From: a virus
Lineage: Duplodnaviria > Caudoviricetes
Length of the DNA stretch: 50,847 nucleotides
Strand: one strand, 5' to 3'
Virus record (IMG/VR): IMGVR_UViG_3300031669_000042
Span: 1 to 50,847 of that record
In this document: piece after piece, positions 1 to 50,847 of the stretch
Numbering within the stretch: position 1 is the first letter of the stretch
Layout: each line of letters starts with the position of its first letter
Notes under the pieces: model-generated
Told to the model about the DNA's origin: nothing
The model's input: only the letters and a program-made list of their open reading frames with translations
The model's database searches: none
Position numbers and translations under genes: made by a program

Positions 1-133
1 ACCAGGCCAGTAGTCCCTGCTGGAACTTGTTTGCCCGCGCCTCTCCCCCGTCCTCGATGGGGAAGGTCTCAGGCCAGAGCCCCACGGTGCTCCCGACGTG
101 CAGGTCCGCGATGGCCAGGATGTCCGCCGTCAT
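1..133 (-). CDS. Partial (runs off window) putative calcineurin-like metallophosphoesterase
   Basis: Manual translation MTADILAIADLHVGSTVGLWP... shows a hydrophobic strand followed by DxH; ATG overlaps the upstream stop (ATGA). Confidence 0.55.
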   Translation of the reverse strand, partial: MTADILAIADLHVGSTVGLWPETFPIEDGGEARANKFQQGLLAW

Positions 134-17503: not shown

Positions 17504-19425
17504 GGCACGACGTCCTCTGTGGCCTGCGGCTCCTCTGCCTTATGCGCCACCAGGTAGATGTTCTGCCCCTCGCCCAGCGCCCAGTCGTGCCAGCGCACCC
17601 GTTCCTGGTAGGCGGCCAGCCGCTCGGGGTGGGCCAATAGCCCCTCGGGGCCGTAGATCCCCGGCACCGTGCTGACCGCTCGGTCCACCGCCAGCCCGGC
17701 CTTCTGGCAGGCCGCGACCAAGGACGAGAACCCGTAGCCCCGCAGGTGCTCGCAGCCGTCCACGAACGCGCCATCCGGGTCGTTCGGGGTCGTGATCAGG
17801 GCCACGCCGTTCGTCGCCAGCATGCGGCGGATGTTGGCCAGCAGCGCCTCGGGGTCCACTACGTGCTCGATGAGCTCCATCGCCAGCACCAGATCGTAGG
17901 CGCCGCTCTCGCCGTAGGTCTCGGCGTTGGCCACGATGCAGGTGACTTGGGCCGGTAGGGTGTCCGCGGCCTCGGCGATCCGGACTTGGCTGATATCGAC
18001 GGCGTCCACCGTGAGCCCCAGCCCTATGTACTCGTCTACCAGCGTCTGGACCATCTCCCCCTCGGCGCAGCCCAGGTCCACCACGGTCTCGTAGCGCCGC
18101 GAGCCGATGGCCTCCAGGGCCACTTGGCGCCGGTGTGCGTTGTACCAGTGGTCGGCGTCGGTCCGGCACATGCTGTGGTCCCGCTCGGCGACTTGGTCGT
18201 AGAAGGCTGCGTAGAGCGTGCGCGGCTCGGGCGCGTGCTCGGCGTCGGCTATGTCGTGCGCCACGCCCCTGAGGAAGGGCACCCAGAAACCGTCCACCAG
18301 GACGTCCCAGCCGTACTGCTCGTGGGCCACCTTCACGGCGTGCTGGCACTTCCTGCTCTGCCCCTTGTCGCCCCAGCCGTAGACCTCCTCTAGCGCCTCG
18401 GCCACGGCGTCCGGGTCCACCTGGGCGATCCAGCTATTGAGCGGCGTCCAGGTCCTGGTCGGCCTGGGCTCCACGGTGATCCCGGCCCAGGTCAGCTCGG
18501 GCATGGCCGTGAAGTTGGTCGTGATCACCGGCGTCCCGCAGGCTTGGGCCTCCAGGATAGGGATACCGAACCCCTCACTCGTGGCCGCTGCCAGATGCAC
18601 GTCGCTGGCCCGGTAGATGTCGGCCATGTAGGTGTCCGGGAGCCCCATCAGGTAGCGGTACTGTGGCGCCGGGATGACGCACTTGGCGTCCAGCCCGATG
18701 GCCTCCATAAAGGCGCGCAGCTCGATCCCGTCGTTCCCCGCTCCCATCTCGGTGTGCAGGTAGAGCATGGCGTCCGGGTGAGACTTTCGGAACTTGGCGA
18801 ACGCCAGGATGTTCTCGGGCAGCGCCTTCCTGCTCGGGTTGCCCTTGTTGGCGGCCACGATGTCGACCAGGTAGCAATCCGCTGGGATCCCCAGGCGCTC
18901 CCTGGCCGCGGCCTTGTCGCCGGGGCAGAACACCGTCGGGTCCACGCCGTGCGGGATGTAGGTGGTCTCTAGCCCGGCCCTGGCGCACTCCTCGTAGCCG
19001 AAGCGGGAGTAGACCAGCGGGTAGTCCGCCTCCTTGGCCCGCTCCAGTACCAGTGGCGGGATGGGCTGGTGGTCCACCGGGAACCAGGGCGCCCACTTGG
19101 CCCTGAAGCGCTCCTTGTAGCCCGCCGGGAGCACCCACAGGTCCTGCAGGCTGACCACGACGTCGGCGTGAAAGTCGGCGCAGTGCGCCCCGATCACGTC
19201 GCAGCCCCAGGGGTCCCGCATGGCGGGGTACATGGTGATCGCTCCCGCCTGGATCTTGGCCCCCGCCAGGCCGTACCAGGCAAAGTTAGCCGCGGCGATC
19301 CCCTTGGCGGCCAGCCGCGGCAGCAGGTACTTGCCCTGGATGCCGTAGCCGGTGGTCGCCCAGATGGCGTTGGCGCTCCACATCATGCGGAGCCACTCGG
19401 TCGTCGGTCCCTCTTTTGCTTGCAT
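17500..19425 (-). CDS. Glycosyltransferase (GT4, GT-B fold) fused to class I SAM-dependent methyltransferase
   Basis: IPHGVD, SEGFGIPILEAQACGTPVI; C-terminal VVDLGCAEG...YDLVLAMELIEHV...LITTPN. Confidence 0.88.
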   Translation of the reverse strand: MQAKEGPTTEWLRMMWSANAIWATTGYGIQGKYLLPRLAAKGIAAANFAWYGLAGAKIQAGAITMYPAMRDPWGCDVIGAHCADFHADVVVSLQDLWVLPAGYKERFRAKWAPWFPVDHQPIPPLVLERAKEADYPLVYSRFGYEECARAGLETTYIPHGVDPTVFCPGDKAAARERLGIPADCYLVDIVAANKGNPSRKALPENILAFAKFRKSHPDAMLYLHTEMGAGNDGIELRAFMEAIGLDAKCVIPAPQYRYLMGLPDTYMADIYRASDVHLAAATSEGFGIPILEAQACGTPVITTNFTAMPELTWAGITVEPRPTRTWTPLNSWIAQVDPDAVAEALEEVYGWGDKGQSRKCQHAVKVAHEQYGWDVLVDGFWVPFLRGVAHDIADAEHAPEPRTLYAAFYDQVAERDHSMCRTDADHWYNAHRRQVALEAIGSRRYETVVDLGCAEGEMVQTLVDEYIGLGLTVDAVDISQVRIAEAADTLPAQVTCIVANAETYGESGAYDLVLAMELIEHVVDPEALLANIRRMLATNGVALITTPNDPDGAFVDGCEHLRGYGFSSLVAACQKAGLAVDRAVSTVPGIYGPEGLLAHPERLAAYQERVRWHDWALGEGQNIYLVAHKAEEPQATEDVVP

Positions 19426-22572: not shown

Positions 22573-22724
22573 CTCCCCCCTACTTTTCGTGCGCCCCCAA
22601 GGCAAATAAAAAGGCTTGCGGCGCGCCTGGACGCGCTTCCACCGTGCGCCCTAGTGTAACATATCTTTGGGGTCTCTACAATACCCCTCCCAGCGCGCCC
22701 CGCGCCCGCCGGCAGCTTGACTGA

Positions 22725-22780
22725 TTATAATAATGGGAATTACGTCTATATATATATAGACGTAATTCCCATTATTATAA
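22725..22780. repeat. Perfect 56-bp AT-rich palindrome (copy 1)
   Basis: ttataataatgggaattacgtctatatatatatagacgtaattcccattattataa equals its own reverse complement. Confidence 0.97.
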
Positions 22781-27603: not shown

Positions 27604-29859
27604 TTAGCTGTACAGGTCATAGATCTCTTTTGCTCGCTGTGCGGTGGTCTGCGTGACCAATTCTACCACGAGCTTGATGCCCCCGCTAGCCGTGACCGTC
27701 TTGCCCTTTACCGTCCAGACCAGGTTGCGGCCCAGCAGCACCTCGTGCTCGCTTGGGTGCGAGGAGCTGTAGCCGGGCAGGCTGTTCATGTGAATCGCCG
27801 GGGTGCCCTTGGGCGCCCGGAACTGAACCTGGACGCCTTCGTTCCAGGTGCTTTTCGTGCCGGTCATCGTGGCGTCGTAGCCCAGCGAGACGTAGGGATC
27901 CCCGACCTTGAGCTTGGCCGCCTGGGTGTAGAGCGGGTCGTGCTTGCCCTTCCCGCGCGTCACCACCATGTTGGTGGGCAGGCTGTTGGTCGCCATGAAG
28001 GTGTCGATCTGGTTGATCCACGTTGCCGCTTGCCCGGTGGGCGCCTGGCCGTGCCAGAGCGGCTCGTTGATTGTGGAATAGCCCGATCCCTGCCATGCCC
28101 CTACTGCCTGGACTTGCGCCGTTGTCGGCTTGGCCTGTTTCCAGCTTCCCTTCAGGAACTTGTCGCCTGCGGCTATGTCGTCGAAGGCTTGGTGCGGCGC
28201 GCTCCACGGCGTAGCTGGGTTGTTCTCGGGCTTGATGCTCTGGGCCGCTGCGGTCGAGCCAACCTGGCCGGGCTTGTACTGGTTGTGCTTGATGTCGTGG
28301 GCCAGCGAGTTGAGCGTCTGGGCGTCGCTCGTGGTGATCGTACCCTGCTTGACCACCACGCCCACGTCCGGGTCGGCCTGCAGCTTCTGGGCGACCTTTT
28401 TCGCCGTGGCCTCGTCTACGGCGTGGGCGATGTGCAGCTTGCTTCCCAGGTGGGTGATCTCCCACTTGCCGGGCTGGTTGATCGCCGGGTGAACCAGCAG
28501 CTCGCCGTAGGCGGTGCCCTTCACGTTCACGGCCTGGCCGCCCTGGGTCACCAGCTTGGCCTGGCCGGACGTCGCCGGAGGCACCGCCGTATCCTTGGCA
28601 AGGACCGCCTTGAATTCAGCCGTTGCCGCCGCCTCGGCCTCGGGCGTGGTGGCCTTGGGTCCAGTGAACATGGCGGAGAGCTGGGTGCCGGTCAGCTTGC
28701 CGCCGACCGCTGGCCCGGCCTGGCCCTGCTGCGCCGCATCCACCAGGGACTCCATCGCCTGCTTGTCAGAGACGTTCGCGGCGTACATCTGGGCCGCGGC
28801 TTTGCTTTTTAGCGGGCTCGATGTGTAGGGCTGCCCCGTCACCGAATCCACCACCGCATAGCCGCCGGGCACCTTCTGGATGGTGGGCTTGCCCTGGGCC
28901 TGCGCCGCCGATTGAGCAGGCGTCTGCGGTGCCATGGTCGCCGCCAACTGGGCCTGCGCTCCCTGGACTGCCGCTTGGAGCTCGGCCTGCTGGTTCAGGT
29001 TCGCAGCTTTCAGTGCCGCCTTGGCCTCATACTTGTGGGTGCTCACGAGCTTCCCGTCCGGCCCGTAGACGCTGTAGCCGTGCTGTCCCTTCACCACGTG
29101 GGCTTGTCCGGTTGTTTGGGCCTGGGCTTCGGCCTTGCTGGGACCACCCATGTGGGCCTGGCCCCACGCATCCGCCTGGGCCTTGGTCTTGAACCCCTGC
29201 TCGTAGACCTCCCCGCTGGCCGTGTTGTAGACCGTCATCCCCTTGGGTCCCTTGGCCACGAAGTAGGTCTCCCCGGCGGCCATGGCCTGGGCCTGGGCGA
29301 TGGCCAGCGACTTTTTGGTGAATGGGGTCCCCGATTCTCCTCCCGCTGTTATGGCCTCATACTTGCCGCCACCTATCGCATGGACTGCCCATTCCCCGCC
29401 TTCCTCACCGCCGGCCACGACCTCGCCCTTCTTGGCCTTGAAGTACTGCTTGACCTCCCCGCCGTTCAGCTTGGTCGCCGTCTGCTTGGCGTAGGTCTGG
29501 CTCTGCAGTGTCTTGGCGACCTGGCCGGTGGTCTCATCCACCACGTCGTAGCCCGAGCCGGAGGCGGACTTGGTCACCACATAGTGCGGCGGAGGAGGCG
29601 GCGGAGGCTCTGTGGCCTTGGGCTTGGCATGGGAAACCCAGCCCGCGTAGGAGGCGTTTATCAGCGCCCCCTGGACGGCCATCCCCTTGACGAAATCGTT
29701 CGCCTGGCTCAGGAGCTCCTTTGCCTTGGCCGCGCCGCCAATGCTGACTAGTCCCTGCTGGGGCACAAAGACGTTTGCTGGCTTGGCGTTGTGCGGCCCG
29801 AGGGCTTGGCCCGCGCCGCTGGCCCCCAGCTTGACCCAGATCCCCCCGCTTGCGGCCAT
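27604..29859 (-). CDS. Multi-repeat protein with C-terminal VIP2/Alt-like ADP-ribosyltransferase domain
   Basis: WQGSGYSTINEPL...VVTRG...GYDAT...SEHEVLL (R and ExE motifs); start re-called at MAASGGIW. Confidence 0.8.
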   Translation of the reverse strand: MAASGGIWVKLGASGAGQALGPHNAKPANVFVPQQGLVSIGGAAKAKELLSQANDFVKGMAVQGALINASYAGWVSHAKPKATEPPPPPPPHYVVTKSASGSGYDVVDETTGQVAKTLQSQTYAKQTATKLNGGEVKQYFKAKKGEVVAGGEEGGEWAVHAIGGGKYEAITAGGESGTPFTKKSLAIAQAQAMAAGETYFVAKGPKGMTVYNTASGEVYEQGFKTKAQADAWGQAHMGGPSKAEAQAQTTGQAHVVKGQHGYSVYGPDGKLVSTHKYEAKAALKAANLNQQAELQAAVQGAQAQLAATMAPQTPAQSAAQAQGKPTIQKVPGGYAVVDSVTGQPYTSSPLKSKAAAQMYAANVSDKQAMESLVDAAQQGQAGPAVGGKLTGTQLSAMFTGPKATTPEAEAAATAEFKAVLAKDTAVPPATSGQAKLVTQGGQAVNVKGTAYGELLVHPAINQPGKWEITHLGSKLHIAHAVDEATAKKVAQKLQADPDVGVVVKQGTITTSDAQTLNSLAHDIKHNQYKPGQVGSTAAAQSIKPENNPATPWSAPHQAFDDIAAGDKFLKGSWKQAKPTTAQVQAVGAWQGSGYSTINEPLWHGQAPTGQAATWINQIDTFMATNSLPTNMVVTRGKGKHDPLYTQAAKLKVGDPYVSLGYDATMTGTKSTWNEGVQVQFRAPKGTPAIHMNSLPGYSSSHPSEHEVLLGRNLVWTVKGKTVTASGGIKLVVELVTQTTAQRAKEIYDLYS

Positions 29860-29860
29860 C

Positions 29861-31387
29861 TCAGCCTCCCTTGTAGAGCTTGACGATGTCGGCGTCGCTG
29901 GCCGGGTCCTTGATCGAGCCGTTCTGGACCCCGGTCCACAGCTTGCGCACAAACCCGTCGATCTGGCCGTCCTTGACTCCCTGCCTGCTCAGCACGCTGT
30001 GAATCCGGCTCAGTTGCTGCATGCGGTCAAACCTGGCCCCCACCGTGGCGTGCAGCGCCTTGGGCATCACGCCCAGGAGTTGCTGCCGCTTCCCGGCCAT
30101 CGCCTTGGCCTGGGCCGCGACCTGTCCGATGGTCATGCTGCCAAAGACCGGCTTGCCCTGGCTGCTCTCCCGGAGGCTCCAGACCTCCATGGGAAAGTTG
30201 CCGAAGGCGTCGCCCTTGGCCTTGCCCTGAGCGCGGAAACGCAAGCTCCCGCCGTTGTCGATGCGGTACGTCTTGCCGCCGCCATAGAGGATGTTGTCGG
30301 CGTCCAGCCCGATCACGTCCCAGTTGCTCAGCAGTGCGTCCGCGGCAAAGTTGCGCTGCAGGCTGGCGTAGGCGCGCTGCCGCTCGACCCCGTGCAGGTC
30401 CGCCAGCGCCTTGCCCTGGACGAACTCGGCCAGCTTCACCGGCCCGCCTGGCTGCTGATAGACCTTGAAGGGCGCGACTCTGGCCCCGAGGACCTCGTAG
30501 GCCGCGTCGGCGTAGCTCTCCTCTAGCAGGTGCTCGGGGCTGTTGCCCCGCTTCAGCACGTACTGCTGGCCCCCGGCTGTCACCAGCTTGGTCCCGGTGG
30601 AGCCCCCCAGGCTCTTGACCGTGGTGGTAGCCGCCGGGCTCTCGGGCCAGGTGACCTCCCCCGGCTTGCTCGCCGGTGCCGTCGTGGGGTTGGCCGCCGG
30701 AGCTGCCGCCGGCTTGGCCGATGGCTGCTTTCCGCCCACCTGGTCGAGCGCAGCGAGCACGTCCTGGTCACGCTGCTTGTTGAGTAGCACCGCCGCCTCG
30801 GACTTGGGCACCAGCTTGACCGACTGGCTCTCTGTCCCCTGGTCCCCGGGACTGCCCCCGATCCGCCGGGCCAGGTAGAAGCGGGTTGTGCTGGTGTCGC
30901 CCTCGAAGTGGCCCACCATCCCGGTGATCTCGGCCTGCAGCCCGGTCTCCTCGAAGACCTCTCGCAGCGCGTTCTGCTGGTCGGTGAGACCCTTATCCAG
31001 CCCGCCCTTGGGGAAGGTGTGCTGATAGCCGCCGTAGTGGCCCTTGGGCTCGTAGATCCAGACCCGCCCATCCGGCTCCACGATCACGCACCCGGCGCTG
31101 CGCTTTTTGCTGCCCGGCGGCCAGCTCTCATCCCCCACGGGAACGTCCCACACGTCCTTCCAGAACCCCGGCTTGGCGCTGCCCATGGCCACGCCGTTGA
31201 TGGCCCCCTGCTCGTGGCCGCCGGGAGGAAAGACAACGCTGTCCGCCCGGTAGGGCGTGCTGGTCGCGCTGCCCTTGGGTCGGTTGCCGCCCAGCACGGC
31301 CTGCACGGTGCTCCCCTTGGGCACGAACACGCGGGTTGTGGCCCCTGCCGCCCCGCCCTTGGTCCAGGTCCCGCCGCTTGCTGCCAT
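29861..31387 (-). CDS. NUDIX hydrolase fused to HipA/PI3K-PI4K-like kinase-fold domain
   Basis: Nudix box GGLDKGLTDQQNALREVFEETGL; LGGSTG...YVLK...E...NWDVIG...DNI...RIDNG kinase-like motifs. Confidence 0.8.
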   Translation of the reverse strand: MAASGGTWTKGGAAGATTRVFVPKGSTVQAVLGGNRPKGSATSTPYRADSVVFPPGGHEQGAINGVAMGSAKPGFWKDVWDVPVGDESWPPGSKKRSAGCVIVEPDGRVWIYEPKGHYGGYQHTFPKGGLDKGLTDQQNALREVFEETGLQAEITGMVGHFEGDTSTTRFYLARRIGGSPGDQGTESQSVKLVPKSEAAVLLNKQRDQDVLAALDQVGGKQPSAKPAAAPAANPTTAPASKPGEVTWPESPAATTTVKSLGGSTGTKLVTAGGQQYVLKRGNSPEHLLEESYADAAYEVLGARVAPFKVYQQPGGPVKLAEFVQGKALADLHGVERQRAYASLQRNFAADALLSNWDVIGLDADNILYGGGKTYRIDNGGSLRFRAQGKAKGDAFGNFPMEVWSLRESSQGKPVFGSMTIGQVAAQAKAMAGKRQQLLGVMPKALHATVGARFDRMQQLSRIHSVLSRQGVKDGQIDGFVRKLWTGVQNGSIKDPASDADIVKLYKGG

Positions 31388-35560: not shown

Positions 35561-35655
35561 GCCGCTCCCTTGCTTGACACGTTATAATAAACGCGGTTAC
35601 GTATATAGACGTAATTCCACTTATTCCCGGCCCCTCTCTTACTTGACCCGTTATC

Positions 35656-35701
35656 ATAATGGGAATTACGTCTATATATATATAGACGTAATTCCCATTA
35701 T
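35656..35701. repeat. Perfect 46-bp palindrome (copy 2, identical to the core of copy 1)
   Basis: ataatgggaattacgtctatatatatatagacgtaattcccattat; an extra half-site tatatagacgtaattcc at 35602-35618. Confidence 0.97.
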
Positions 35702-35713
35702 TCCCCTTGGCCC

Positions 35714-39223: not shown

Positions 39224-42001
39224 CTACTCTGCCGCCCCGGCTGCTACGAAATAGGGGCTCGGCTCGCCCACGAACGGAGCCCCCTGGCCGAACCGCTTCT
39301 GCATCCTGGTGATCGCCCGCATCGCCAGGGCGTGGGTGATCACTTCCGCGCAGGCCCCCTTGGTCAGGCCCTCCTGCCAAACCTTGAGGCTCGATGCGAA
39401 CTTGGCCTGGCCTGGGCTCGCGGGCTGCTTGCGCCACCCGCGCGACCGGGCTGCCAGGGCCGCGTTGTGATACTTTTCGATGAGCAGGTCCGCCCGCTCG
39501 CTCACTTCCTCGAAGGTCCCCACCTGGCCCAGCACCGCCTGGTTCCCGTGCCCCAGCGCCTGCCGGTTGGTCCAGACCAGCCAAAGCTCGCACTGGCCGT
39601 CCGCGTCCGGCTTGCTAATCGCCAGGGTCCGCTCGATCCCGTCCCGGGCCTCCCCCAGCCCCAGGGTGAGCCAGCCGCTCCTATTGTCCTGGTGCCAGGC
39701 GAAGGCTGAAAGCTGCAGGTAGTCTAGCTGGCGGCTGATGATCTCCATCGGGTCGCCGCTCATCCACTTGGTCTTGCCGTCGAAGGTGAACCCGCCGAGC
39801 ACGTCCCCTTCCTCTGCCTGCTCGGGGTCCGCGATGTACACTTCCTTGCGGGTGTCGAGCCCCAGGATGTCGCCCATCAGAGTCAGGTTCCGCGCCTCTA
39901 GCGGCACATAGTCGAGCACCAAAGCGTCCTCTTTGCCGGGGCTTAGCCGCAACGCGCGGCCGATGCAGTTTCCCAGGATAGCCACTTTGCCATGACGTCG
40001 AGTCACGAGCGTGCCGAGCTCGTTCTGCACACACCAGACGACCTCCCCAGGCACCGCCGCGACTTCATGCAGGACCGGTCGGCCATCATAGGCCCCGGCC
40101 GTCTGTCCTCCCACATAGCGGTCTGTCTCCCGATACGCGTGAAGGCGAAAGAACGGCTTCCCGGCTGAGCTAGTCGCTTCAACAACATTGCAGCGCCAGC
40201 CACGGCGCACACAGAGACCCTGAAGTCTTTCCACGAACAGTCGATTGCCCTTGTGTATGGTAAGTGTGCGTCGCGTCCAAGGGCGACCCTTGGAGATGTA
40301 TTGCTGATGTTGTTTGCTGCCATCTGCGAAGTTGACCGTCTCCAGGAGCACAGCGAGTTGGCGTTCATCCATCTCTTCCAGCAATGGGGAGAAGCCCTTA
40401 CTCAGATAGGGCTCCAGACGTCCCCAGCCGCTGAGGTGCTTGTCCCGGCCTCGTGGCTGCCCCCTGGATACGGTATAGTTGATCTGCGCCGAACGCCGCC
40501 GAAAGTTCGAGGCACCGCACTGGCGATGAACGCCATACTTGAAGCCACATCGCTTGAGCGTGTCTTCGATCTGCTGGTGGTAGGGCTGATGTTCTGCCTG
40601 ACTGATTGTGATTTGGCCATTCAACGAGTTGATGCAGCCATCTGTCATAACCCAGGCAATGAAACGAATCTCGTGATCCGTAAGCGGCAAGCCCTCGACC
40701 TTCTCGTGCCCCGCTACAGGGATGACATAGTCGCTCTTCCGCTTGGCCATTTCGTCTGCCGTGCTAATCCGCCATTTGGCTCCCGCGTTTTTGTTGCGAT
40801 AGATCATGCGATGGCCACCGGTCACACGGATATCAACACAATCCGAAAACAGACCATACATGCGCTCCCCAGGGGCTAGGGAGCGCTCGATCTTCTGCTG
40901 CATTGCAGCCCAGCAAATCGCGTTTTTCCCGAGATCCAGTCCGGCGACCAGATCATCTTTGGCAATCTGGTCCTTGCCCATCCAGCCACGCTTAGTCAGT
41001 ATCTCGGTTGCATCATCCAGACACTGGGTATACAGGGCGTCGCTCCCGGTGGGCCGCACCATGTGGATGCAGCTTGTCTGCGGTATGTCGAGCCCTTCCG
41101 TGAAGATCCCGACGTTGACCAGCACCTTGGTCTTGCCCGCCCGGAAATCGGTCAGGACGCGCCGCCGCTCCTCCCGCGGCGTGGTGCCGTCCGCGGCCTG
41201 GGCCACGATCCCGCCCTCGCGGAACTTGGCCGCCAGCCGATAGGCCCCGTCGACCGTCGGTGTAAAGGCGATGGCCTGCCGCTCCTGGGCGTACTTGTGG
41301 TGGCTCGCCACCACCAGGTCGAAGCAGTTGTCGCACTCGTACACCGAGCCCAGGCCCTTGGCGCTGTAGTCCCCGTCGTGCTTGCTCACGCCCTTGATGC
41401 TCAGCTTGACGTGAATCGCCAGCCAGCGCGGCGGCACCAGCCACCCCGCCTTGATCATCTCCTTGAGCCCGTACTTGAAGGCCACGCTCTCGTAGACTTC
41501 GGCCATCCCTTTTTTGTCCTCGCGCATGGGCGTGGCCGTGACGCCCAGGTGCCGCACGTCCGGGTTGGCCTCCCGCAGCGCCTGGTAGACCGCCTGGTAG
41601 GTGTCGGCCACGGCGTGAATCGCTTCATCCGTGACCACGTAGTCGATGGCGCCGTGCGCCAGGACCCTGGCCAGGCGATTCCCGCTGTTCAGGGTCTGAA
41701 CCGTGGCCACCACGATGCGCCGGTCGCATTCGTCGTACTCGGCCATCACCGCCCCGGCCTGACCCTTCCACTCGGGCCAGAACTGGTAGAGGCGCTCGAT
41801 GGGCTGGTAGATCAGCTCCTCTCGGTGCGCCAGCACCAGCGCCCGCGCCTTGGGGTTTTTCGTGAGCTCCTCTACGAGCAGCGCCAGAAAGACGTTCGTC
41901 TTGCCCGCGCCCACCGCCGCCACCCCCAGGGTGCTCTGAACGCCGTTCGCCCATTCGGCCCGTACCGCGTCCACCGCCTTCTGCTGGTAGTCCCGTAGCA
42001 T
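39224..42001 (-). CDS. SF2 (DExH, Irc3/RadD-like) helicase, intein-containing
   Basis: LRDYQ, GAGKT, DEAIH, GVTATP, TEGLDIP; motif VI YTQ|CIGRALR split by the intein. Confidence 0.92.
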   Translation of the reverse strand: MLRDYQQKAVDAVRAEWANGVQSTLGVAAVGAGKTNVFLALLVEELTKNPKARALVLAHREELIYQPIERLYQFWPEWKGQAGAVMAEYDECDRRIVVATVQTLNSGNRLARVLAHGAIDYVVTDEAIHAVADTYQAVYQALREANPDVRHLGVTATPMREDKKGMAEVYESVAFKYGLKEMIKAGWLVPPRWLAIHVKLSIKGVSKHDGDYSAKGLGSVYECDNCFDLVVASHHKYAQERQAIAFTPTVDGAYRLAAKFREGGIVAQAADGTTPREERRRVLTDFRAGKTKVLVNVGIFTEGLDIPQTSCIHMVRPTGSDALYTQCLDDATEILTKRGWMGKDQIAKDDLVAGLDLGKNAICWAAMQQKIERSLAPGERMYGLFSDCVDIRVTGGHRMIYRNKNAGAKWRISTADEMAKRKSDYVIPVAGHEKVEGLPLTDHEIRFIAWVMTDGCINSLNGQITISQAEHQPYHQQIEDTLKRCGFKYGVHRQCGASNFRRRSAQINYTVSRGQPRGRDKHLSGWGRLEPYLSKGFSPLLEEMDERQLAVLLETVNFADGSKQHQQYISKGRPWTRRTLTIHKGNRLFVERLQGLCVRRGWRCNVVEATSSAGKPFFRLHAYRETDRYVGGQTAGAYDGRPVLHEVAAVPGEVVWCVQNELGTLVTRRHGKVAILGNCIGRALRLSPGKEDALVLDYVPLEARNLTLMGDILGLDTRKEVYIADPEQAEEGDVLGGFTFDGKTKWMSGDPMEIISRQLDYLQLSAFAWHQDNRSGWLTLGLGEARDGIERTLAISKPDADGQCELWLVWTNRQALGHGNQAVLGQVGTFEEVSERADLLIEKYHNAALAARSRGWRKQPASPGQAKFASSLKVWQEGLTKGACAEVITHALAMRAITRMQKRFGQGAPFVGEPSPYFVAAGAAE
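39968..41023 (-). mobile_element. Intein (352 aa) with LAGLIDADG-like homing endonuclease
   Basis: Starts CLDDATEILTKRGW; block B VTGGHRM; FIAWVMTDG and LETVNFADG motifs; ends VWCV...LVTRRHGKVAILGN before Cys+1; visibly lower GC. Confidence 0.92.
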
Positions 42002-44407: not shown

Positions 44408-44836
44408 CTAGAACGGCACGTCGTCTGGGTCCGGCTCGGCCTGTTCAGGGGCACAATCGCCGGAAGCACCCACCACCAGCACCGCCAACTTGGCGGGCCG
44501 ATTGACGACATCCCAGGAGATCGTCGCCACGTCGATCCGGAGCCGCGAGGCGTTCCATAGCTGCTTGGCGATCTCGGCCTCGGCGCGCCCGAAGGCGATC
44601 TGGTAGCCCCGGTCATAGTCAAAGGGGAGCGCGGGCTGCCCGCGCTCATTCACCAGGGCCGCGTCGTTCGGGTTGTACTTGGCGAACCCGAGCCCCCGCA
44701 GGGTCTTGTTGGCCCCTGGCACGGGCATCTGCGCCTCGACCACGGTGAAATGGCCGCGCGCGCTCCACTTGGTGTCCTTGCGCTGCTTGCGCACGAAGGA
44801 CTTTGTCTCTGCGAAGCTCTCAAATCTCAACTCCAC
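44408..44836 (-). CDS. Hypothetical protein
   Basis: 142-aa ORF with RBS; acidic DDVPF C-terminal tail. Confidence 0.7.
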   Translation of the reverse strand: MELRFESFAETKSFVRKQRKDTKWSARGHFTVVEAQMPVPGANKTLRGLGFAKYNPNDAALVNERGQPALPFDYDRGYQIAFGRAEAEIAKQLWNASRLRIDVATISWDVVNRPAKLAVLVVGASGDCAPEQAEPDPDDVPF

Positions 44837-44858
44837 GTTTGTCTCTCCCTCTTTTTAC

Positions 44859-45092
44859 TCAGCCCCCGCGGGCTTCCTGCCAGTCGTTCTGCCACTCGCG
44901 GCACTGCAGCCGAATGCGCCACTCCATGCCGCACCTGGGGCAGCAAAATTCCTGCCCGGTCGGTGGCGGGATCAGGTCCCCGCAGACGCAGCGCACGGTC
45001 ACGCCATGGCGGGTGACCACGAGGCCGCCCTCGTCACCGGCCAGGCGCCAGCGCGGCGTCGTCGCCTTGTTCGACTCCACGGACCCTTCCAT
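44859..45092 (-). CDS. Small zinc-ribbon protein
   Basis: CVCG...CPRCG. Confidence 0.65.
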   Translation of the reverse strand: MEGSVESNKATTPRWRLAGDEGGLVVTRHGVTVRCVCGDLIPPPTGQEFCCPRCGMEWRIRLQCREWQNDWQEARGG

Positions 45093-45103
45093 CGTTTCCC
45101 TCC

Positions 45104-45679
45104 CTATAGCGACAGGCCCTGGGCTTGAGCCACCTCACGCGCCAGCACCTTGGTCGCCTGCATCTTGACGTAGTCCGCGACCTCCTGGTAGTCCAGCGTC
45201 ACCCCTTCCACCCGCTCGATGGTGGCGATCCACCGCCACTTCACCTCCTGGTAGATCTCGTAGGCCAGCCGCAGGCAGCGCCCGCCGTCCCACGTCTTGA
45301 CCTCCTCCCCGCGGTAGCCCTCTCGCCGCAGGATGGCCTCGGCCAGGTTGAGCGCCAAGTCCGCGGGTCCGCTGCCGGCGTAGCCGAACTCGTAGCCGCT
45401 CGGGCTGTGCTCCACCACCAGGTGCGGCACGTTGGTCTCCGTGACCCCGTCCGCTCCCCGGCGGATGATGATGCCCGCCTCTAGCGGCGAGCCGATAGTA
45501 CGGTCCGCGATGTCCTCCTCTTGCCCTTGGCCACTGCCGCGCCCCACCTTGTGGCGGCAGATGGGTCCCATCCCTGCCTGCCGCGATGTCGGGTTGCTCA
45601 GCGCCCGCCCGCACCGCTCGCAGTAGTTGGTGGGTCCGCCCAGGCCCGCCTTCGCAAACATCGCCCCTTGCTGGTACAC
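45104..45679 (-). CDS. DUF6011-like Zn finger fused to DUF6166-like domain
   Basis: CERCGRALSNPTSRQAGMGPIC; HSPSGYEFGYAGSGPADLALNL. Confidence 0.7.
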   Translation of the reverse strand: MYQQGAMFAKAGLGGPTNYCERCGRALSNPTSRQAGMGPICRHKVGRGSGQGQEEDIADRTIGSPLEAGIIIRRGADGVTETNVPHLVVEHSPSGYEFGYAGSGPADLALNLAEAILRREGYRGEEVKTWDGGRCLRLAYEIYQEVKWRWIATIERVEGVTLDYQEVADYVKMQATKVLAREVAQAQGLSL

Positions 45680-45701
45680 GTCTCCCTCCTGTGTCTGTCT
45701 T

Positions 45702-45726
45702 GGAGGCGCCGCTCTGCAGCGCCTCC
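45702..45726 (-). other. Hairpin closing pentamer array 2
   Basis: ggaggcgc-N9-gcgcctcc. Confidence 0.7.
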
Positions 45727-45734
45727 CTTACGGT

Positions 45735-45846
45735 GCCTTTGCCCTGCGTGGCGGAGCTACGCCATGCCCTTGCTTTGCTGGGCTAAGCAGTGCATTTCCT
45801 TGCCCTTGCTATGCTGGGCGTCGCCTCGCCATGCCTTTGCCGCGCC
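45735..45846 (-). repeat. Pentamer array 2 (NGC-NN units), putative guide-like ncRNA
   Basis: About 22 units in 5-nt register with 6-nt A-rich units spaced 31, 36 and 31 nt apart. Confidence 0.85.
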
Positions 45847-45969
45847 TCATCTCATCAAGATCTTGACCGCTACTCCAATCACGAGCAGGCCGATCCCCAA
45901 AGGCGGCGCCGCCACGAACAGCAGCCCGCAGAAACCCAAGAACGCCAACACCCCCAGTAGTTTGAACAT
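45847..45969 (-). CDS. Small membrane protein (40 aa) between the two arrays
   Basis: MFKLLGVLAFLGFCGLLFVAAPPLGIGLLVIGVAVKILMR; AGGAGG RBS. Confidence 0.7.
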   Translation of the reverse strand: MFKLLGVLAFLGFCGLLFVAAPPLGIGLLVIGVAVKILMR

Positions 45970-46034
45970 CGTGCCTCCTATTGAGCCTTGTCTGATTTGG
46001 TGGCCCCCGGCCACTCCCGCTCGCATCCCGTCTC

Positions 46035-46241
46035 GCCTTTGCTGTGCTTCGCTGCGCTGCGCCAAGCCGTTGCCTCGCGATGCTCCGCTCCGCCTTTGCT
46101 TTGCTGTGCTTCGCTGCGCTGCGGCGCGCCGCCGCGCGTTGCCTTTGCCACGCGTCGCTCTGCCTCGCGGTGCAGTGCCTTTGCCGAGCTAGGCCACGCT
46201 ATGCCTCTGCCGTGCGATGCGACGCCGCGCGGCGCGTCGCC
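46035..46241 (-). repeat. Pentamer array 1 (NGC-NN units), putative guide-like ncRNA
   Basis: About 40 units starting 14 nt after the RAMP gene stop; 6-nt units at 46035, 46066, 46092, 46141, 46177, 46203; followed by hairpin 46000-46014. Confidence 0.88.
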
Positions 46242-46254
46242 ATGTGCCGCCCAG

Positions 46255-46884
46255 CTATTGCGCCGCCTCGACCTCCGTTAAGGTCGCCTCGAATCGCCCA
46301 TAGCCCGCGTTGCGCCACTGGCCGAGGCCGCGCAGGGCGCCGTACTCCAGCCACTCCCGGAATAGGCCCTTCGGGATCTTCCCCAGGGCCAGGATCTCAA
46401 AGCTGCAGGTGGTCCCCGCCGGGCAGGCTTCGCTCGCCGCCAGCGCCACGCGCTCGCCCTTGGCGGTCTGTGCCCGCAAGGGCCGCACCAGGATGCTGAT
46501 CGCTTCCGCCTCGGGCACTTCCAGGCGGATGAGCCTGGGGAATACGAACACCAGCCCATCGATCACCTTCCGAAACGCCCTCAGCTTGGCGCTCCCGGAC
46601 TCGGGGTCCCGGCTGAGCATGCTGCAGGCGTCTTTGAAGAACCCCTTGATGGCATAGTCGTACAGCGCCGGGGCGCCATCCTCCAGGCGGTGAAACCCGG
46701 TGGTGCCCTTCTCCAGCGCCTCGGGGAGCGTCTCCATCTCATCCTCGATGTCCGTGGCGCTCCCGTTGTCGTTCCCCTCTGCCTCCAGCTTGCTCTGGAT
46801 GTGCTCCTTGTAGATGTCCGGGTTGCCCGGCACGGTGCCCAGGATGGGCTCGGTAAAGCGTAGGTGTACTCGGTACTTGTTCAT
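46255..46884 (-). CDS. Stand-alone Cas7/Csm3-like RAMP superfamily protein
   Basis: YRVHLRFTEPILG (beta1), DGAPALYDYAIKGFFKDA (P.i....lKG.lR-like), EACPAGTTCSFEI, C-terminal Gly-rich loop RGLGQWRNAGYGRF. Confidence 0.8.
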   Translation of the reverse strand: MNKYRVHLRFTEPILGTVPGNPDIYKEHIQSKLEAEGNDNGSATDIEDEMETLPEALEKGTTGFHRLEDGAPALYDYAIKGFFKDACSMLSRDPESGSAKLRAFRKVIDGLVFVFPRLIRLEVPEAEAISILVRPLRAQTAKGERVALAASEACPAGTTCSFEILALGKIPKGLFREWLEYGALRGLGQWRNAGYGRFEATLTEVEAAQ

Positions 46885-47423
46885 AGCTCCCCTCCCTCTG
46901 TCTCCACCGGCTCCTCTGGAATCTCCAGCGTGCCGCTAATCGCCACCGACGGCTCGGTGACGATGTCTAGCGGCGCCCCCGGCAGGCTCTCCTTGGCCTT
47001 CTGCAGCGCCGCGTCGTTCACTTGTAGCCAGTTGGCGGTGTCGTCTGCGCCCGCCAGGTAGCCCACCACGTCCGCCGTGCGCCGCGGGTCGATCTCCAGG
47101 TAGACCGGCGCGTTGGCCCGCAGCCAGCCCACCATGTTGGCCTGGTCATACGCGGCCCGCTTGCCGATGCGAATCTGCACCCCGCCGGCTGGCCGCTTGT
47201 CGCCCGTCTCCCGGAACGCACGCAGCGCCTCCTCCCGCACGGCAACCGATAGCGACTGCTCGCCGTTCAGCGCCTCGGCCAGGACCTTGCTCGCCTGGCG
47301 TAGCTGCTCGGCGATGGCCAGGGCCTGCATCTCCTGCTGGAGCCCGTCCACCCGCGCCCGCGCGACCAGGACCGACACCCGCTGCTTTGCCAAATCCGCG
47401 ATCTTGCGCTCTAGCTCGCTCAC
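46881..47423 (-). CDS. Coiled-coil protein, possibly Gam/Gp157-like
   Basis: N-terminal coiled coil then GVQIRIGKRAAYDQANMVGWL; GTG start; ATGA-coupled to the RAMP gene. Confidence 0.5.
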   Translation of the reverse strand: MSELERKIADLAKQRVSVLVARARVDGLQQEMQALAIAEQLRQASKVLAEALNGEQSLSVAVREEALRAFRETGDKRPAGGVQIRIGKRAAYDQANMVGWLRANAPVYLEIDPRRTADVVGYLAGADDTANWLQVNDAALQKAKESLPGAPLDIVTEPSVAISGTLEIPEEPVETEGGEL

Positions 47424-47929
47424 TCGGCCACCTCCCGCACGATCCGGTAGAGCAGCTTGTAGATCTTGGCCGCCAGCTCGCGCTCCTGTGGGGCCAGGTC
47501 CTCTAGCTCCCCTTGCGCGCGCGCCTCGGTCTCTACTCGGCAGTCCTGGCACACGCACCACCCGTCGTCGTAATACTCCCCCGGCAGCAGCGCCTGGACT
47601 TCACCCAGGCGGTGCAGGCTGTCGACCTCCCACAGCGGGGTCCGCTTCCCGCAGGTCTCGCACGGCGCGACTAGCTCGAAGTAGGTCCTGCGGTTCAGCC
47701 GGGTCCCCAGCAGCTTGGTGCCGTCCGCGAACGTGGCCAGGCCCTGGTAGCTGTTGAGCATCTCCACGACCGGGCTCTCCCCGAACAGCGCCTCCGCCCG
47801 CCGCTGGATGAGCTCGGCACACTCGGCCTTATCCGCCTGGCGCGCCGCCTCTAGCTCGGCCCGCTGCTTCTGGTAGACTTCCGCCGCCCGCTCGGCCAGT
47901 CCCTTGTACTCGGTCAGTTGCTCTGTCAC
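47420..47929 (-). CDS. Zn-finger hypothetical protein, paralog B (169 aa)
   Basis: CETC...CQDC; KGLAERA, ATFADGTKL, AAKIY. Confidence 0.75.
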   Translation of the reverse strand: MTEQLTEYKGLAERAAEVYQKQRAELEAARQADKAECAELIQRRAEALFGESPVVEMLNSYQGLATFADGTKLLGTRLNRRTYFELVAPCETCGKRTPLWEVDSLHRLGEVQALLPGEYYDDGWCVCQDCRVETEARAQGELEDLAPQERELAAKIYKLLYRIVREVAE

Positions 47930-48435
47930 TCCGCCTCCCTCCTGATCATCTCTTGCACCACCCGGTAGAGCTTGGCCGCGATCTGGAGCTCGGGCTCCGC
48001 TAGCCCCAGCCAGCCATCATTCTCCTTGGCCCTGTTCTCTGCCTGACGGCATTCCCGGCACAGCACCCGCCCGTCGCCGAAGTGGCTTGCCGGTCCCTCG
48101 GCCAGCGCGTGCCCGAGCTCATAGATGTTGTTGGCCACCTGCGCCGGAACCACGGCGTCGCACTCCTGGCAGCACCCCGCCAGGCGCCACTCCTTGCCGT
48201 ACTGGTGGCAGATCGCCAGCTTGGTGCCGTCCCGGAAGGTCGCCCAGCCCTCGCGAAGGCTGATCATCGTGACCTTGGGCGTCTCCCCGAAGGTCTCCAG
48301 CATGTTGTAGCGGACTTTGCGCTCGATCTCGACCAGCTCCCGCCTGCGCGCCGCTTCCGCCTCAGCCTGGTCCTGGTGATAGGCTTTCAGCGCCCGCTCG
48401 GCCAGCCCCTTGGCCATGGTCTCTTGCTCTGTCAC
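47926..48435 (-). CDS. Zn-finger hypothetical protein, paralog A (169 aa)
   Basis: CQEC...CREC; KGLAERA, ATFRDGTKL, AAKLY; GTG start with AAGGAGAG RBS. Confidence 0.75.
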   Translation of the reverse strand: MTEQETMAKGLAERALKAYHQDQAEAEAARRRELVEIERKVRYNMLETFGETPKVTMISLREGWATFRDGTKLAICHQYGKEWRLAGCCQECDAVVPAQVANNIYELGHALAEGPASHFGDGRVLCRECRQAENRAKENDGWLGLAEPELQIAAKLYRVVQEMIRREAE

Positions 48436-48460
48436 TTTGTCTCTCCTTGTACGAATCAGG

Positions 48461-48484
48461 AGGCCCCGGCGCGTGCCGGGGCCT
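48461..48484. other. 10-bp intergenic hairpin
   Basis: aggccccggc-gcgt-gccggggcct; no U-tract. Confidence 0.6.
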
Positions 48485-48496
48485 GTTGGCCCTCTC

Positions 48497-49897
48497 CTAG
48501 AATGCGATGGACTCCACGCCGGGGATCCCGTCGATCCCCTCTGGCGGAGGCCCTGGCTCCGGCTCGCCCGTCTCGGGCTCATCCAGCAGGTCGATGATCT
48601 TGGTCTGCGCCTGCAGGAAGGTCCCCATGAAATCGGCCAGGCGCTCCACTCCCAGCGCCTGCAGGACGTGCCTGTAGCCCGGCGCCGCGATCTGCCGCGC
48701 CCCTGCCGCCGCCACCGCGAACTCCACGATGGTCGCCCGGTTCTCGTCTTTGCCATTCCAGTCCGCGGGCAGGCCAGCGTTGCCCCTTTCCCGGCCCGCG
48801 GCATAGTCCCGCAGGGCGTCGCACAGATCGTCGAGCGTGCCGGGGAAATCGCGGAGCTTGGCCACCCCGCTGGCCGTGGCCAGCTCCTCTGCCGAGCTGA
48901 TCTCCAGTCCCTTTGTCAGGCTCGTGACCCGCGCCTTGCCCTCCTGGGTCTCGTACCATTCCTTGGGCGCCTGGGACTTGCCAGCCGCAGGCGCCGCAGG
49001 GGCCGGGGCTGGTGCCGGGGACTTGGCCGCTGCAGGCTTGGCCGCTGCAGGCTTGGCCGCTGCGCCGTTGCCCTGCTCGGTCCCCTCATCCCAGGGCGCC
49101 TCGGTCTCATCATCCAGGAGCTCCCCAGTTTCCGGGTCGACGTTCACGCCGCCCAGCACCGGGATCTTGCCCGTCGGGACCCCGATGGCCAGCGCCGCCG
49201 CGCGCGCCTGGGCCACCTGGGCCTCGATCCACTCGGCCACTGGCTCGACGGTCACCACGCCCAGGGTCCGCACGCCGTGCTCCTTGGTGGGAATATCGCG
49301 CAGCACCCGGTGGATGATCACCTCGATGCCGCGCAGGTCCTCCCGGCCATCGGTGCGCTGGGTCTGGATGTTGTACAGGTCCTTTTCGATGGCGTACAGG
49401 TCGGTCAGCGCGTGGGTCTCTAGCGTCACCTGGCCCACGCAGCCCCGGCTCAGGAGCTCGGGCAAAATCAGCGCCAGCCGGCCCACCGGCTTGTGGTCGC
49501 CGGGCTTGGCCGGCTGCTCGCCGCTGCAGTAGGGGCAGGTCTTGCGCTCGTGGCTGTAGCTCCTGCCGTCCGCCACGAGCCACTTGACCCAGACCACGCC
49601 GTCGCAGCGGTAGACCAGCCGATTGCGTTGCCCGGCCCGTGCCCAGCCTTCGATCCAGTAGTCCCAATTGTCCCGCACGTGCGCAAAGGGCAGGTAGGCC
49701 CGCACGCTCTCCACCCGGTCGGTGTGGTAGGCGTTCATAAACGCCGCCATGACCGCTGGGTCATCCGCCGTGAACCTGAACACGGTATCCAGGTCTCGGC
49801 CTGGCCCACGCTCGGGCTTGACGTCGCCCTTGCGCAGCTTGCCGATGGTTCGCAGGATGCTCCTCTGGGAGCGGTCCGCGATCTGTTGGATTGCCAC
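48497..49897 (-). CDS. Gp3-like (recombination directionality factor-like) protein with C-terminal extension
   Basis: IGKLRKG...DLD..FRF...LPF...LVYRCDG...CP...KPVGRL..ILPEL; NVDPETGEL; AAKP linker; GTG start after GGAGG. Confidence 0.65.
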   Translation of the reverse strand: MAIQQIADRSQRSILRTIGKLRKGDVKPERGPGRDLDTVFRFTADDPAVMAAFMNAYHTDRVESVRAYLPFAHVRDNWDYWIEGWARAGQRNRLVYRCDGVVWVKWLVADGRSYSHERKTCPYCSGEQPAKPGDHKPVGRLALILPELLSRGCVGQVTLETHALTDLYAIEKDLYNIQTQRTDGREDLRGIEVIIHRVLRDIPTKEHGVRTLGVVTVEPVAEWIEAQVAQARAAALAIGVPTGKIPVLGGVNVDPETGELLDDETEAPWDEGTEQGNGAAAKPAAAKPAAAKSPAPAPAPAAPAAGKSQAPKEWYETQEGKARVTSLTKGLEISSAEELATASGVAKLRDFPGTLDDLCDALRDYAAGRERGNAGLPADWNGKDENRATIVEFAVAAAGARQIAAPGYRHVLQALGVERLADFMGTFLQAQTKIIDLLDEPETGEPEPGPPPEGIDGIPGVESIAF

Positions 49898-49898
49898 T

Positions 49899-50168
49899 CT
49901 ACTTGCCTCCATTGCTGTTGGTCTTGGCCCCGCCCGCCACGGGCAGGCCCGCGTACACTTCCTCGACGCGCGCCGTCGTCTTGCGCAGCACCGGCATGGC
50001 TTCCGCCTTCACCACGTCCTTGACTTCGGCGAACAGCCGGGCGTAGGCGCCCAGCTCCTCCTCTCCCTGGTCCAGGTCGGCCCAGGCGCTGGCCTCGATG
50101 TGCATGCTCTCAAAAGAGCCTAGATTCCACTTGCGTCCGTAGGTCACGCTGATCGTCTTGACCTGCAT
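49899..50168 (-). CDS. Conserved-looking hypothetical phage protein
   Basis: ISVTYGRKWNLGSFES motif; RBS present. Confidence 0.7.
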   Translation of the reverse strand: MQVKTISVTYGRKWNLGSFESMHIEASAWADLDQGEEELGAYARLFAEVKDVVKAEAMPVLRKTTARVEEVYAGLPVAGGAKTNSNGGK

Positions 50169-50219
50169 TTTGCTTTTCTCCCTCTACCGCCTATAATGGC
50201 GGCTGATCGTCCCCTTGCA

Positions 50220-50259
50220 GCCCCGGCCCGCAACCACCCACCATCGGGCCGGGGCTTTT
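50220..50259 (+). terminator. Possible intrinsic terminator / hairpin
   Basis: gccccggcccg-N14-cgggccggggc followed by tttt on the + strand. Confidence 0.4.
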
Positions 50260-50261
50260 GC

Positions 50262-50429
50262 TTACCGCTCACGCGGGATCAGCAGGCTGCCCACGATCAG
50301 GCCGTAGATGATGGTCCCTATCGGGAACCAGAACGCAATCGGGAGGCAAGCCGCCACCGGCAGCCACCACCACCGACTCTTGTACCCCGTCACCGGGTTG
50401 CGCCCGACGTTCCGCCACCATTTGCGCAT
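50262..50429 (-). CDS. Small Trp-rich membrane protein (55 aa)
   Basis: Manual translation MRKWWRNVGRNPVTGYKSRWWWLPVAACLPIAFWFPIGTIIYGLIVGSLLIPRER; AGGAGG RBS. Confidence 0.6.
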   Translation of the reverse strand: MRKWWRNVGRNPVTGYKSRWWWLPVAACLPIAFWFPIGTIIYGLIVGSLLIPRER

Positions 50430-50500
50430 CCGTCGTCCCTCCTCTCTGCCTGGCCGCCCGGTAGGCCCCGAGCAGCACTCCCCATGCGCGCCCTCGTGCT

Positions 50501-50689
50501 TCAGGACTCGGTCCCATCGCGCTCCTTGAGGCCCCGCAGGTCCTCCATGTCGGCGTTCATCAGCAGCAGGGCGACCACCGCCGACTTGCTGCGAAACGTC
50601 CGCTGTGCCAGCTCCTCTAGCCGTGCCCTAACGCCGGGCGCCAGGCTCAGGCTCACCGGCTGCACCCTCTCCCGTTGCCTTCTCGTCAT
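50501..50689 (-). CDS. Ribbon-helix-helix (CopG/Arc-like) DNA-binding protein
   Basis: VQPVSLSLAPGVRARLEELAQRTFRSKSAVVALLL; start re-called at MTRRQ. Confidence 0.75.
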   Translation of the reverse strand: MTRRQRERVQPVSLSLAPGVRARLEELAQRTFRSKSAVVALLLMNADMEDLRGLKERDGTES

Positions 50690-50742
50690 AGCGTCTCCCT
50701 TCTCCCGGTGTGCCCAGACCGACTTTACGTGCGATCTCGGGC

Positions 50743-50768
50743 AAAAAAAAAGACCCGTCCTGGGGTCT
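50743..50768 (-). terminator. Intrinsic terminator-like hairpin abutting the leftward promoter
   Basis: Minus strand agaccc-caggac-gggtct followed by a T run. Confidence 0.5.
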
Positions 50769-50797
50769 AGTATAACCGAAAGTCGCCGGAATGTCAA
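50769..50797 (-). promoter_or_regulatory. Leftward sigma70-type early promoter
   Basis: TTGACA-N17-TATACT. Confidence 0.75.
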
Positions 50798-50816
50798 TAC
50801 CCTACGGTGGGCAATC

Positions 50817-50845
50817 TTGCGCCTTGCGTAAAGTTGGCGTATAAT
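50817..50845 (+). promoter_or_regulatory. Rightward sigma70-type promoter (divergent)
   Basis: TTGCGC-N17-TATAAT at the window edge. Confidence 0.6.
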
Positions 50846-50847
50846 GT

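Follow-up and report, generated by a model that had tools for sequence, protein, structure and literature searches.

A Phage VIPR Locus With Two Staggered GC-NNN Arrays, Candidate Guides for DNA Binding That May Be Read at Three Bases per Unit

Introduction

VIPR systems combine Vipr with vrRNA and, in some cases, a vap gene, and seven types are listed in the discovery preprint (bioRxiv 10.64898/2026.04.26.720920), the legends to figs S17-S18 of which record staggered arrays. A rule in which 1 nt is skipped is used throughout that preprint, with all types treated as NN readers; binding, reporter, and cryo-EM work demonstrated it for type II (10.64898/2026.04.26.720920; 10.64898/2026.04.26.720927, main text), and it was also applied to types III and V, target searches being confined to types II, III, and V (10.64898/2026.04.26.720920). 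The gapped 2-of-5 code of VIPR is said to tolerate wobble mutations. Work on SUSP1 has described a Vipr protein that forms a filament on RNA, opens a DNA R-loop, and silences as a roadblock without cleavage, and the main text of the structure preprint reports that the third base of the target is flipped outward by the thumb, that H17 and D177 read G1 of the GGY motif, and that the protein binds ssRNA in vitro (10.64898/2026.04.26.720927). Units are modeled as XYZNN in the accessible text of a further preprint (10.64898/2026.10.21.760802). The string 'NNN' is absent from the main text of the structure (10.64898/2026.04.26.720927) and competition (10.64898/2026.10.15.759431) preprints, and a three-base reading was not found in the accessible VIPR text, although the supplementary figures, tables, and data of the discovery preprint and the supplements of the other three papers might cover the clade considered here.

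Here, a locus is described from a tailed phage genome of 50.8 kb and 66% GC that encodes terminase, portal, capsid, tape measure, and endolysin proteins; the whole stretch of DNA that was analyzed (50,847 nucleotides) is referred to as the window. An earlier note, made from the sequence, had proposed a lone RAMP gene accompanied by VIPR-like arrays of pentamer guides, and protein fold, homology to SUSP1, and arrays all agree that the locus is very probably a VIPR system. With modest confidence, its two staggered GC-NNN arrays are considered to guide DNA binding, likely with three bases read per unit. The note took its NGC-NN unit to be a variant grammar; this is not upheld, because NGC-NN is YNNNG in another frame, and the methods of the discovery preprint already give NNNGG, YNNNG, and NNNNG as alternative consensus repeats (10.64898/2026.04.26.720920). 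The motif class and the staggered array style were thus already known, and what is likely new is the GC-NNN parse together with a likely three-base rule.

The vipr Gene, Its Protein, and Genome Context

The gene and the features that bear on its expression are as follows.

46255..46884, minus strand: vipr gene, encoding a 209-aa stand-alone RAMP (Cas7/Csm3-like), from the AlphaFold2 fold, fold matches, and a SUSP1 Vipr profile match
46881..47435, minus strand: early phage gene upstream of vipr, its stop codon overlapping the start of vipr (ATGA), from the ORF listing
50769..50797, minus strand: sigma70-like promoter TTGACA-17-TATACT, 11/12 consensus bases, with 0.6 expected by chance

The 209-aa open reading frame at 46255-46884(-) and its Gly-rich loop RGLGQWRNAGYGRF, in which RAMP/Cas7-type motifs had been noticed, were both recovered. 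The AlphaFold2 model of this protein (pLDDT 93.4, pTM 0.88) was submitted to the structural search that the note had named, and a RAMP fold is present, with Csm3, Cmr, and Cas7 chains in the top ranks: the best match was Csm3 (9g9a_D, Z 12.2, rmsd 3.5, 159 residues aligned), followed by a Cmr subunit and type VII Cas7, in a top range of Z 11.7-12.2. The fold library comprised entries to April 2026 without VIPR structures, and SUSP1 Vipr lay outside this comparison. Foldseek gave E 1.5e-9 against type VII Cas7, and an Atlas structure search matched the RAMPs family PF03787 with TM 0.63/0.70.

Single-sequence searches of Pfam, PHROG, and PDB left the protein unmatched, and tblastn over annotated phages returned 4 unannotated records, SUSP1 not among them. 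Comparison of profiles by HHalign aligned the window's family with the SUSP1 family over full length (probability 90.3, E 1.5e-6, 186 columns), and the SUSP1-family profile in turn matches PDB 36pp, 'SUSP1 Vipr protein', at E 9e-80. The SUSP1 vipr gene was taken from its GenBank record, where it was recognized by the adjoining GGY arrays and by residue numbers in the main text of the structure paper (10.64898/2026.04.26.720927). The two proteins share about 21-24% identity. The G-loop residues W178/R179 of SUSP1 are retained as W190/R191, the G1 reader D177 corresponds to Q189, which is nearly invariant in the family, and the other G1 reader, H17, aligns at or beside T17, at a gap. Because of these last two differences, the alignment fits a loss of G1 specificity in the window's Vipr. 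At E<=0.001 and 90% clustering the family holds 3302 homologues, and it counts 2152 clusters at 50% identity. The closest homologues in cellular assemblies (loci L082-L084, 53-57% identity) are in Chloroflexota bins, a weak hint as to the host.

The backbone RAMPs of Class 1 systems (Csm3, Cmr4, type VII Cas7, and type IV-B Csf2) resemble the window's Vipr in their RRM core, thumb, and G-loop (Z 10-12), and they form a filament on guide RNA, as is expected of the window's Vipr. In contrast to Class 1, the window has no repeat-spacer array, Cas5, Cas6, Cas8, or Cas10, and a 5-nt step, with targeting letters interleaved with scaffold, replaces the 6-nt step. The note's statement that no other cas gene and no CRISPR array is present holds for the 30 ORFs scanned against PHROGs, where no cas family was found, and for the 19 direct-repeat families of the window, none of which is a CRISPR repeat-spacer family; within this scope the window lacks the repeat-spacer array and multi-gene cas operon of class 1 CRISPR-Cas.

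The early gene upstream of vipr has no Pfam or PHROG match and no sign of vap, and families of vap type (DNA-binding, nuclease, helicase) were matched by none of the vipr neighbors in Pfam or PHROG, a comparison that lay outside the vap sequences of the preprint. The promoter at 50769..50797 is the only sigma70-like promoter in 44800-50847 and may drive the early operon that holds vipr. In the same region, 50751-50797(-), a terminator-like hairpin with a T run stands directly after the promoter, which suggests antitermination control of the early operon. DNA of the window was found in six soil metagenome runs, four of them possibly its own source; contigs of two runs (X1, X4) cover the vipr locus without differences and are perhaps from the same source as the window. 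RNA runs are not listed among the sequence runs that hold this DNA.

Several other features of the genome were observed. An AT-rich perfect palindrome of ~50 nt around a TATATA run occurs twice (22716-22776 and 35602-35705), 93% alike and each time after TTGAC; the pair is possibly a late promoter/operator or an origin. A helicase ORF at 39224-42001(-), matched by PHROG at residues 2-328, contains a long insert with Cys and His/Gly-Asn-Cys boundaries, which we take, from its end motif, to resemble an intein. A 782-aa ORF at 27604-29952(-) with an Alt-like ADP-ribosyltransferase domain adjoins a Nudix-domain ORF (29861-31387), and a glycosyltransferase-methyltransferase fusion (17500-19425, minus strand) lies within the virion gene module.

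Pentamer Arrays Beside vipr

Five features were delimited on the 3' side of vipr.

46032..46255, minus strand: guide array 1, about 44 GC-NNN units, from chain scores and unit parsing
46000..46014, minus strand: short GC hairpin after array 1, a possible 3' cap, with a folding z of -0.73 for 45975-46025 that is not significant
45847..45969, minus strand: 40-aa hydrophobic ORF between the arrays, with an AGGAGG ribosome site
45733..45846, minus strand: guide array 2, about 22 GC-NNN units, from chain scores and unit parsing
45702..45726, minus strand: stable hairpin closing array 2, a possible 3' stabilizer (-24.4 kcal/mol, z -4.85)

Two tracts of 5-nt units with a fixed GC, as first noticed in the sequence, are confirmed by a chain score that tolerates missed units and one-base shifts. 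Their period-5 GC chains score 24.4 and 16.4, against 4.6 for the next best chain in the window and a mean of 5.06 (sd 0.89, maximum 8.0) in 30 Markov simulations of the whole window. A plain fixed-period count is weaker, with 9/12 at period 5 equaled by period-6 runs elsewhere. The statement that the first tract starts 14 nt past the vipr stop is true of the unbroken run; the phase of array 1 reaches back to the stop codon itself.

In both tracts the register moves by one extra G every 5-10 units. Array 1 comprises six segments of 10, 5, 7, 10, 5, and 6 units and then a decaying end, with extra G at 46205, 46179, 46143, 46094, 46068, and 46037; its fourth segment (10 units) has a 2-nt slip at 46122-46119, and array 1 also shows an internal 42-nt duplication (46028-46069 / 46090-46131, 83%). 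The full segments of array 2 have 6, 7, and 6 units, with extra G at 45835, 45804, 45768, and 45737. In both tracts the base ahead of GC varies as much as NN does, and deletion of GC from the guide segments leaves a contiguous, natural-looking DNA string, in which one base of every three would carry no meaning under the published skip rule. The arrays parse as G(GC-NNN)n, that is, as about ten putative guides of roughly 5-10 units offset by one G. The earlier note had one protomer per unit bound through a constant GC with NN displayed as a non-contiguous code; the protomer per unit remains likely, whereas the unit parses as GC plus three variable bases. The extra-G register shifts, the fully variable base before GC, and the 40-aa ORF that splits the tracts are features beyond that description. 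None of 200 shuffles was as stable as the hairpin closing array 2, behind which there is no U-run. The 40-aa ORF has no match in a Pfam search. Small hydrophobic ORFs often follow or split arrays (the window; L002, L059, L063) and may be ordinary early-region membrane peptides.

Escherichia phage SUSP1, the type II exemplar (PDB 36pp), and the window share a phage-borne lone homologous RAMP with no CRISPR array or other cas gene found, adjoining non-coding pentamer repeats, and a ratio of 5 nt of RNA to 3 nt of target; in both SUSP1 and the window's branch, candidate targets lie in rival mobile elements and include a recombinase. The differences are several. SUSP1 uses GGY (YNNGG units), whereas the window has the fixed GC of YNNNG units; guides of type II (SUSP1, P. 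fulva) have 9-16 units, those of the window 5-10, abutting; type II carries a structured 3' tail or pseudoknot on each guide, whereas in the window only array 2 ends in a significant hairpin; types II-VII have an adjacent vap gene, and none was found among the window's neighbors by family search. Further, SUSP1 reads NN, whereas in the window's branch target information appears to reside in the third base as well. The YNNNG repeat of other VIPR loci is the window's unit in another frame, and many relatives drift to a G-plus-any scaffold (NNNNG). The figure legends on staggered VIPR arrays describe guides that share ends in a 1-nt overlap (fig. S18), whereas the window has a 1-nt insertion (the extra G); in either case the guides appear to abut at a 1-nt offset.

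Arrays Beside Homologues

A check of homologues for adjoining 5-nt periodicity, as the note had proposed, found a GC chain within 1 kb of vipr at 118 of 154 loci (153 homologue loci and the window), which are not independent because many are sister gut phages. Most rows listed among the other 36 loci have looser G-plus-A/C/T chains, for which no null was run. An opposite-strand control for the GC chains of relatives was void, as GC reads the same on both strands. Loci with this architecture span hosts of 40-67% GC. The relatives yielded 598 distinct segments with the unit GC-NNN, each set off from the next by a single extra G; 5-8 units make up 475 of these segments, and the last triplet is mostly purine-A-N. 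Ahead of GC, inner units have A.34, C.14, G.31, and T.21, and at segment starts the frequency of G is.95. Segments are reshuffled as modules between sister phages.

Candidate Targets of the Guides

In 30 sister gut phages (L237-L266), 9 of them without an array, an origin-like locus lies after an HTH gene and contains iteron-like 10-nt repeats, an AT-rich stretch, and a hairpin. It is hypervariable, with at least 8 alleles, precisely at the matches to sister-phage guides. One guide matches the L237 allele at 25/25 contiguous nt and a second the L238/L239 allele at 15/15; each carrier has another allele, which makes both matches non-self. A third guide differs from the L248 allele at a single NN base (14/15). 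The matches to origin alleles end at or just before the extra G. It should be noted that the best guide matches are repetitive and the origin-like region is A-rich, and that the strongest match is a 9-nt repeat and hence holds only 3 independent triplets.

An NN-only pattern from a guide shared by Faecalibacterium-type phages found a single homologous site, present in 3 of the 91 genomes searched within the genus. The site is in rmrT (NN 16/16, third base 6/8, total 22/24), within a RosmerTA (rmrT-rmrA) island that adjoins a DUF6061 gene (L267-L269), and the matched bases code for MREKRF, the motif best conserved among RmrT homologues; a search of 151 family genomes did not find RmrT. This guide has a second match, in a large serine recombinase (17/18, third base 6/6). 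In the recombinase frame its variants read EKIVL, EKIEL, and ERIVL, resembling a recombinase motif, with the third base at codon position 2 and conservative K/R and V/E changes, whereas they would break the near-invariant K and F of RmrT. Because the guide matches both genes its target is ambiguous, and the third base agrees with either one.

In 24-nt windows with at least 21 matches over 11.2 Mb, 15 pairs at six sites were found against 2 in each of three shuffles, three of the six sites (5 pairs) having been fetched by guide patterns and hence not being independent. The remaining three are the L237 allele, an EIEIE repeat of a replisome organizer (22/24, third base 8/8), and the MATGTGKT motif of type I HsdR (NN 16/16, third base 5/8, all mismatches synonymous); the genome with the HsdR site is not the host of the phage that carries the guide. 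That host-defense genes (type I restriction hsdR, RosmerTA toxin) are true guide targets is doubtful on these matches. The note had guides that could silence DNA or RNA of a rival phage or the host; the candidate sites agree with a rival or host aim, and DNA appears likelier than RNA as the substrate because non-coding origin-like DNA is among the best sites and because the gene matches are in sense orientation, unable to pair with mRNA.

Other searches were negative or weak. One pattern search with the window's own guides gave 0 matches and another a single metagenome match with 3/6 free third bases agreeing, and self-targets did not exceed chance. Among 12 guide pattern searches, 11 gave nothing usable, the rmrT-site search being the exception: five, including the first of the two just given, had 0 matches, one had the single metagenome match, one had 79 with none above 4/7 third bases, one had 2, two had 6 and 2 that were chance-like, and the last had 3, in tail or unrelated genes. 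Group-B guides showed no excess of matches against 80 sister-phage loci, and against a host-genus genome (G008, 2.83 of 3.10 Mb) they gave 44 at 16/18 versus 51-75 when shuffled. An NN-only excess in the host-genus genome (P 0.03-0.045) was mainly due to the known rmrT site. A 17-nt match to host rarA was rejected as within chance (null mean 0.6 sites).

Does the Third Base Carry Target Information?

The evidence that the third base, before GC, is read comes from a handful of sites in relatives and from guide statistics; the matches in relatives suggest that this base carries target information. In sister phages, 4 of 73 sites selected on NN alone agree at 5/5 third bases against 0.1 expected (maximum 1.4 in 200 permutations), in two guide families and with none in cross-group controls. 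Among 41 sites selected at NN 14/14 with pattern-fetched loci excluded, 2 (one locus) agree at 7/7 against 0.0 expected, and 3 at 5/7 or more against 0.46 expected (P 0.014). All candidate target sites show a 3-nt target period; skip lengths of 0-3 tried against 2 Mb of local loci gave no difference from shuffles.

Across 615 dereplicated guides there are 93 in-register stop triplets, versus 114-119 after third bases were permuted (three permutations, P<=0.0015), a depletion that neighbor effects could cause because the third base adjoins NN in the RNA. Guide likelihood under a phage Markov model is at z 4.7 over the third-base permutation null, and at z 1.9 only against permutation of triplet order. 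Shine-Dalgarno 7-mers occur in 17 guides versus 8.9 expected (p 0.008, four motif classes tested), and promoter boxes (-10, -35) were not enriched in guides, though single guides had hinted so. Changes among related guides number 133 at the third base versus 113 and 124 at NN, and third-base transversions have no synonymous bias. Effects between neighboring bases of the RNA might account for part of these guide statistics.

Alternative Explanations

For this branch, the chance that each pentamer is read at three bases is judged about even. The locus may instead be an ordinary VIPR of the YNNNG class that follows the published 1-nt skip, with no constraint on the variable base ahead of GC, or with that base a passive vestige of guide origin; this is considered somewhat improbable. 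It would accord with the type II demonstration and the extension of the rule to types III and V, with the 3-nt period of all candidate targets, with third-base mismatches of 3/8 at HsdR and 2/8 at rmrT, and with a third base slightly more changeable than NN. What it accommodates less well is the excess third-base agreement at sites selected on NN, the avoidance of stop triplets, and the recombinase reading, with its third base at codon position 2 and conservative variants. Moreover, the 4-6 informative units of a guide would specify just 8-12 nt.

It is very improbable that the array RNA stays uncut, as one long scaffold, or that it pairs with RNA (e.g., antisense transcripts against ribosome sites) and not with DNA. 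Such a scheme would be in keeping with the lack of a nuclease, a ribozyme (the Rfam search of the window gave 0 matches), and a structured tail on each guide, with the palindromic GC, by which the opposite strand carries a GC-NNN pattern too, with the Shine-Dalgarno-like strings, and with the in vitro ssRNA binding reported in the SUSP1 structure text (10.64898/2026.04.26.720927). It is at odds with matches that end at or just before the extra G, with segments reshuffled as modules among sister phages, with arrays that adjoin vipr on the same strand, and with best sites that include non-coding origin-like DNA. Least probable is that the tracts are unrelated to the protein and arose as coding repeats or as by-products of low complexity. 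GC is a common dinucleotide in a genome of 66% GC and spurious overlapping ORFs run across the tracts, but chain scores far over the null and the same architecture beside most homologues, in hosts of widely differing GC content, largely refute this view.

A Possible Mechanism

The early operon probably transcribes vipr and the arrays together, and Vipr would coat the array RNA with one subunit per pentamer. The extra G may mark where one guide ends and the next begins; there would then be about ten guides, each with 4-9 informative triplets and closed by a triplet that is purine-rich and nearly constant, and because the extra G resets the register it would limit the filament to one short guide. 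Under the three-base reading GC alone would be buried, and N4-N5-N1 would pair with three target bases in a row, with looser pairing and tolerance of mismatches probable at the third. Guides that are too short to be specific on NN alone would thereby gain 12-27 nt of specificity. Pairing of the third base would need another geometry, because the SUSP1 thumb flips that base out and the alignment of the window's thumb is uncertain. By analogy with SUSP1, and with no nuclease or vap found here, the Vipr-RNA complex would bind dsDNA as a roadblock without cutting, and silencing or blocking would be aimed at DNA of rival elements and possibly at host defense genes.

Implications

If the published rule holds, the locus is an ordinary new VIPR member whose motif class is already listed. 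A possibility judged about even is a large VIPR branch with a 3-of-5 code and contiguous targets, in which many short guides, staggered by one base, would block the origins and recombinases of sister phages and maybe silence host defense; its code would be an intermediate between the gapped one of VIPR and the contiguous one of CRISPR. If the branch does read three of five bases, the VIPR code would be evolvable and the skip would not be a defining property. A 23-kDa protein with ~30-40-nt guides would then be a very compact programmable DNA binder, and silencing of host defense, if true, would amount to RNA-programmed anti-defense. Any guide could be decoded by deleting GC, which would make thousands of guides searchable, and living phages would hold a step between VIPR and the contiguous pairing of CRISPR type.
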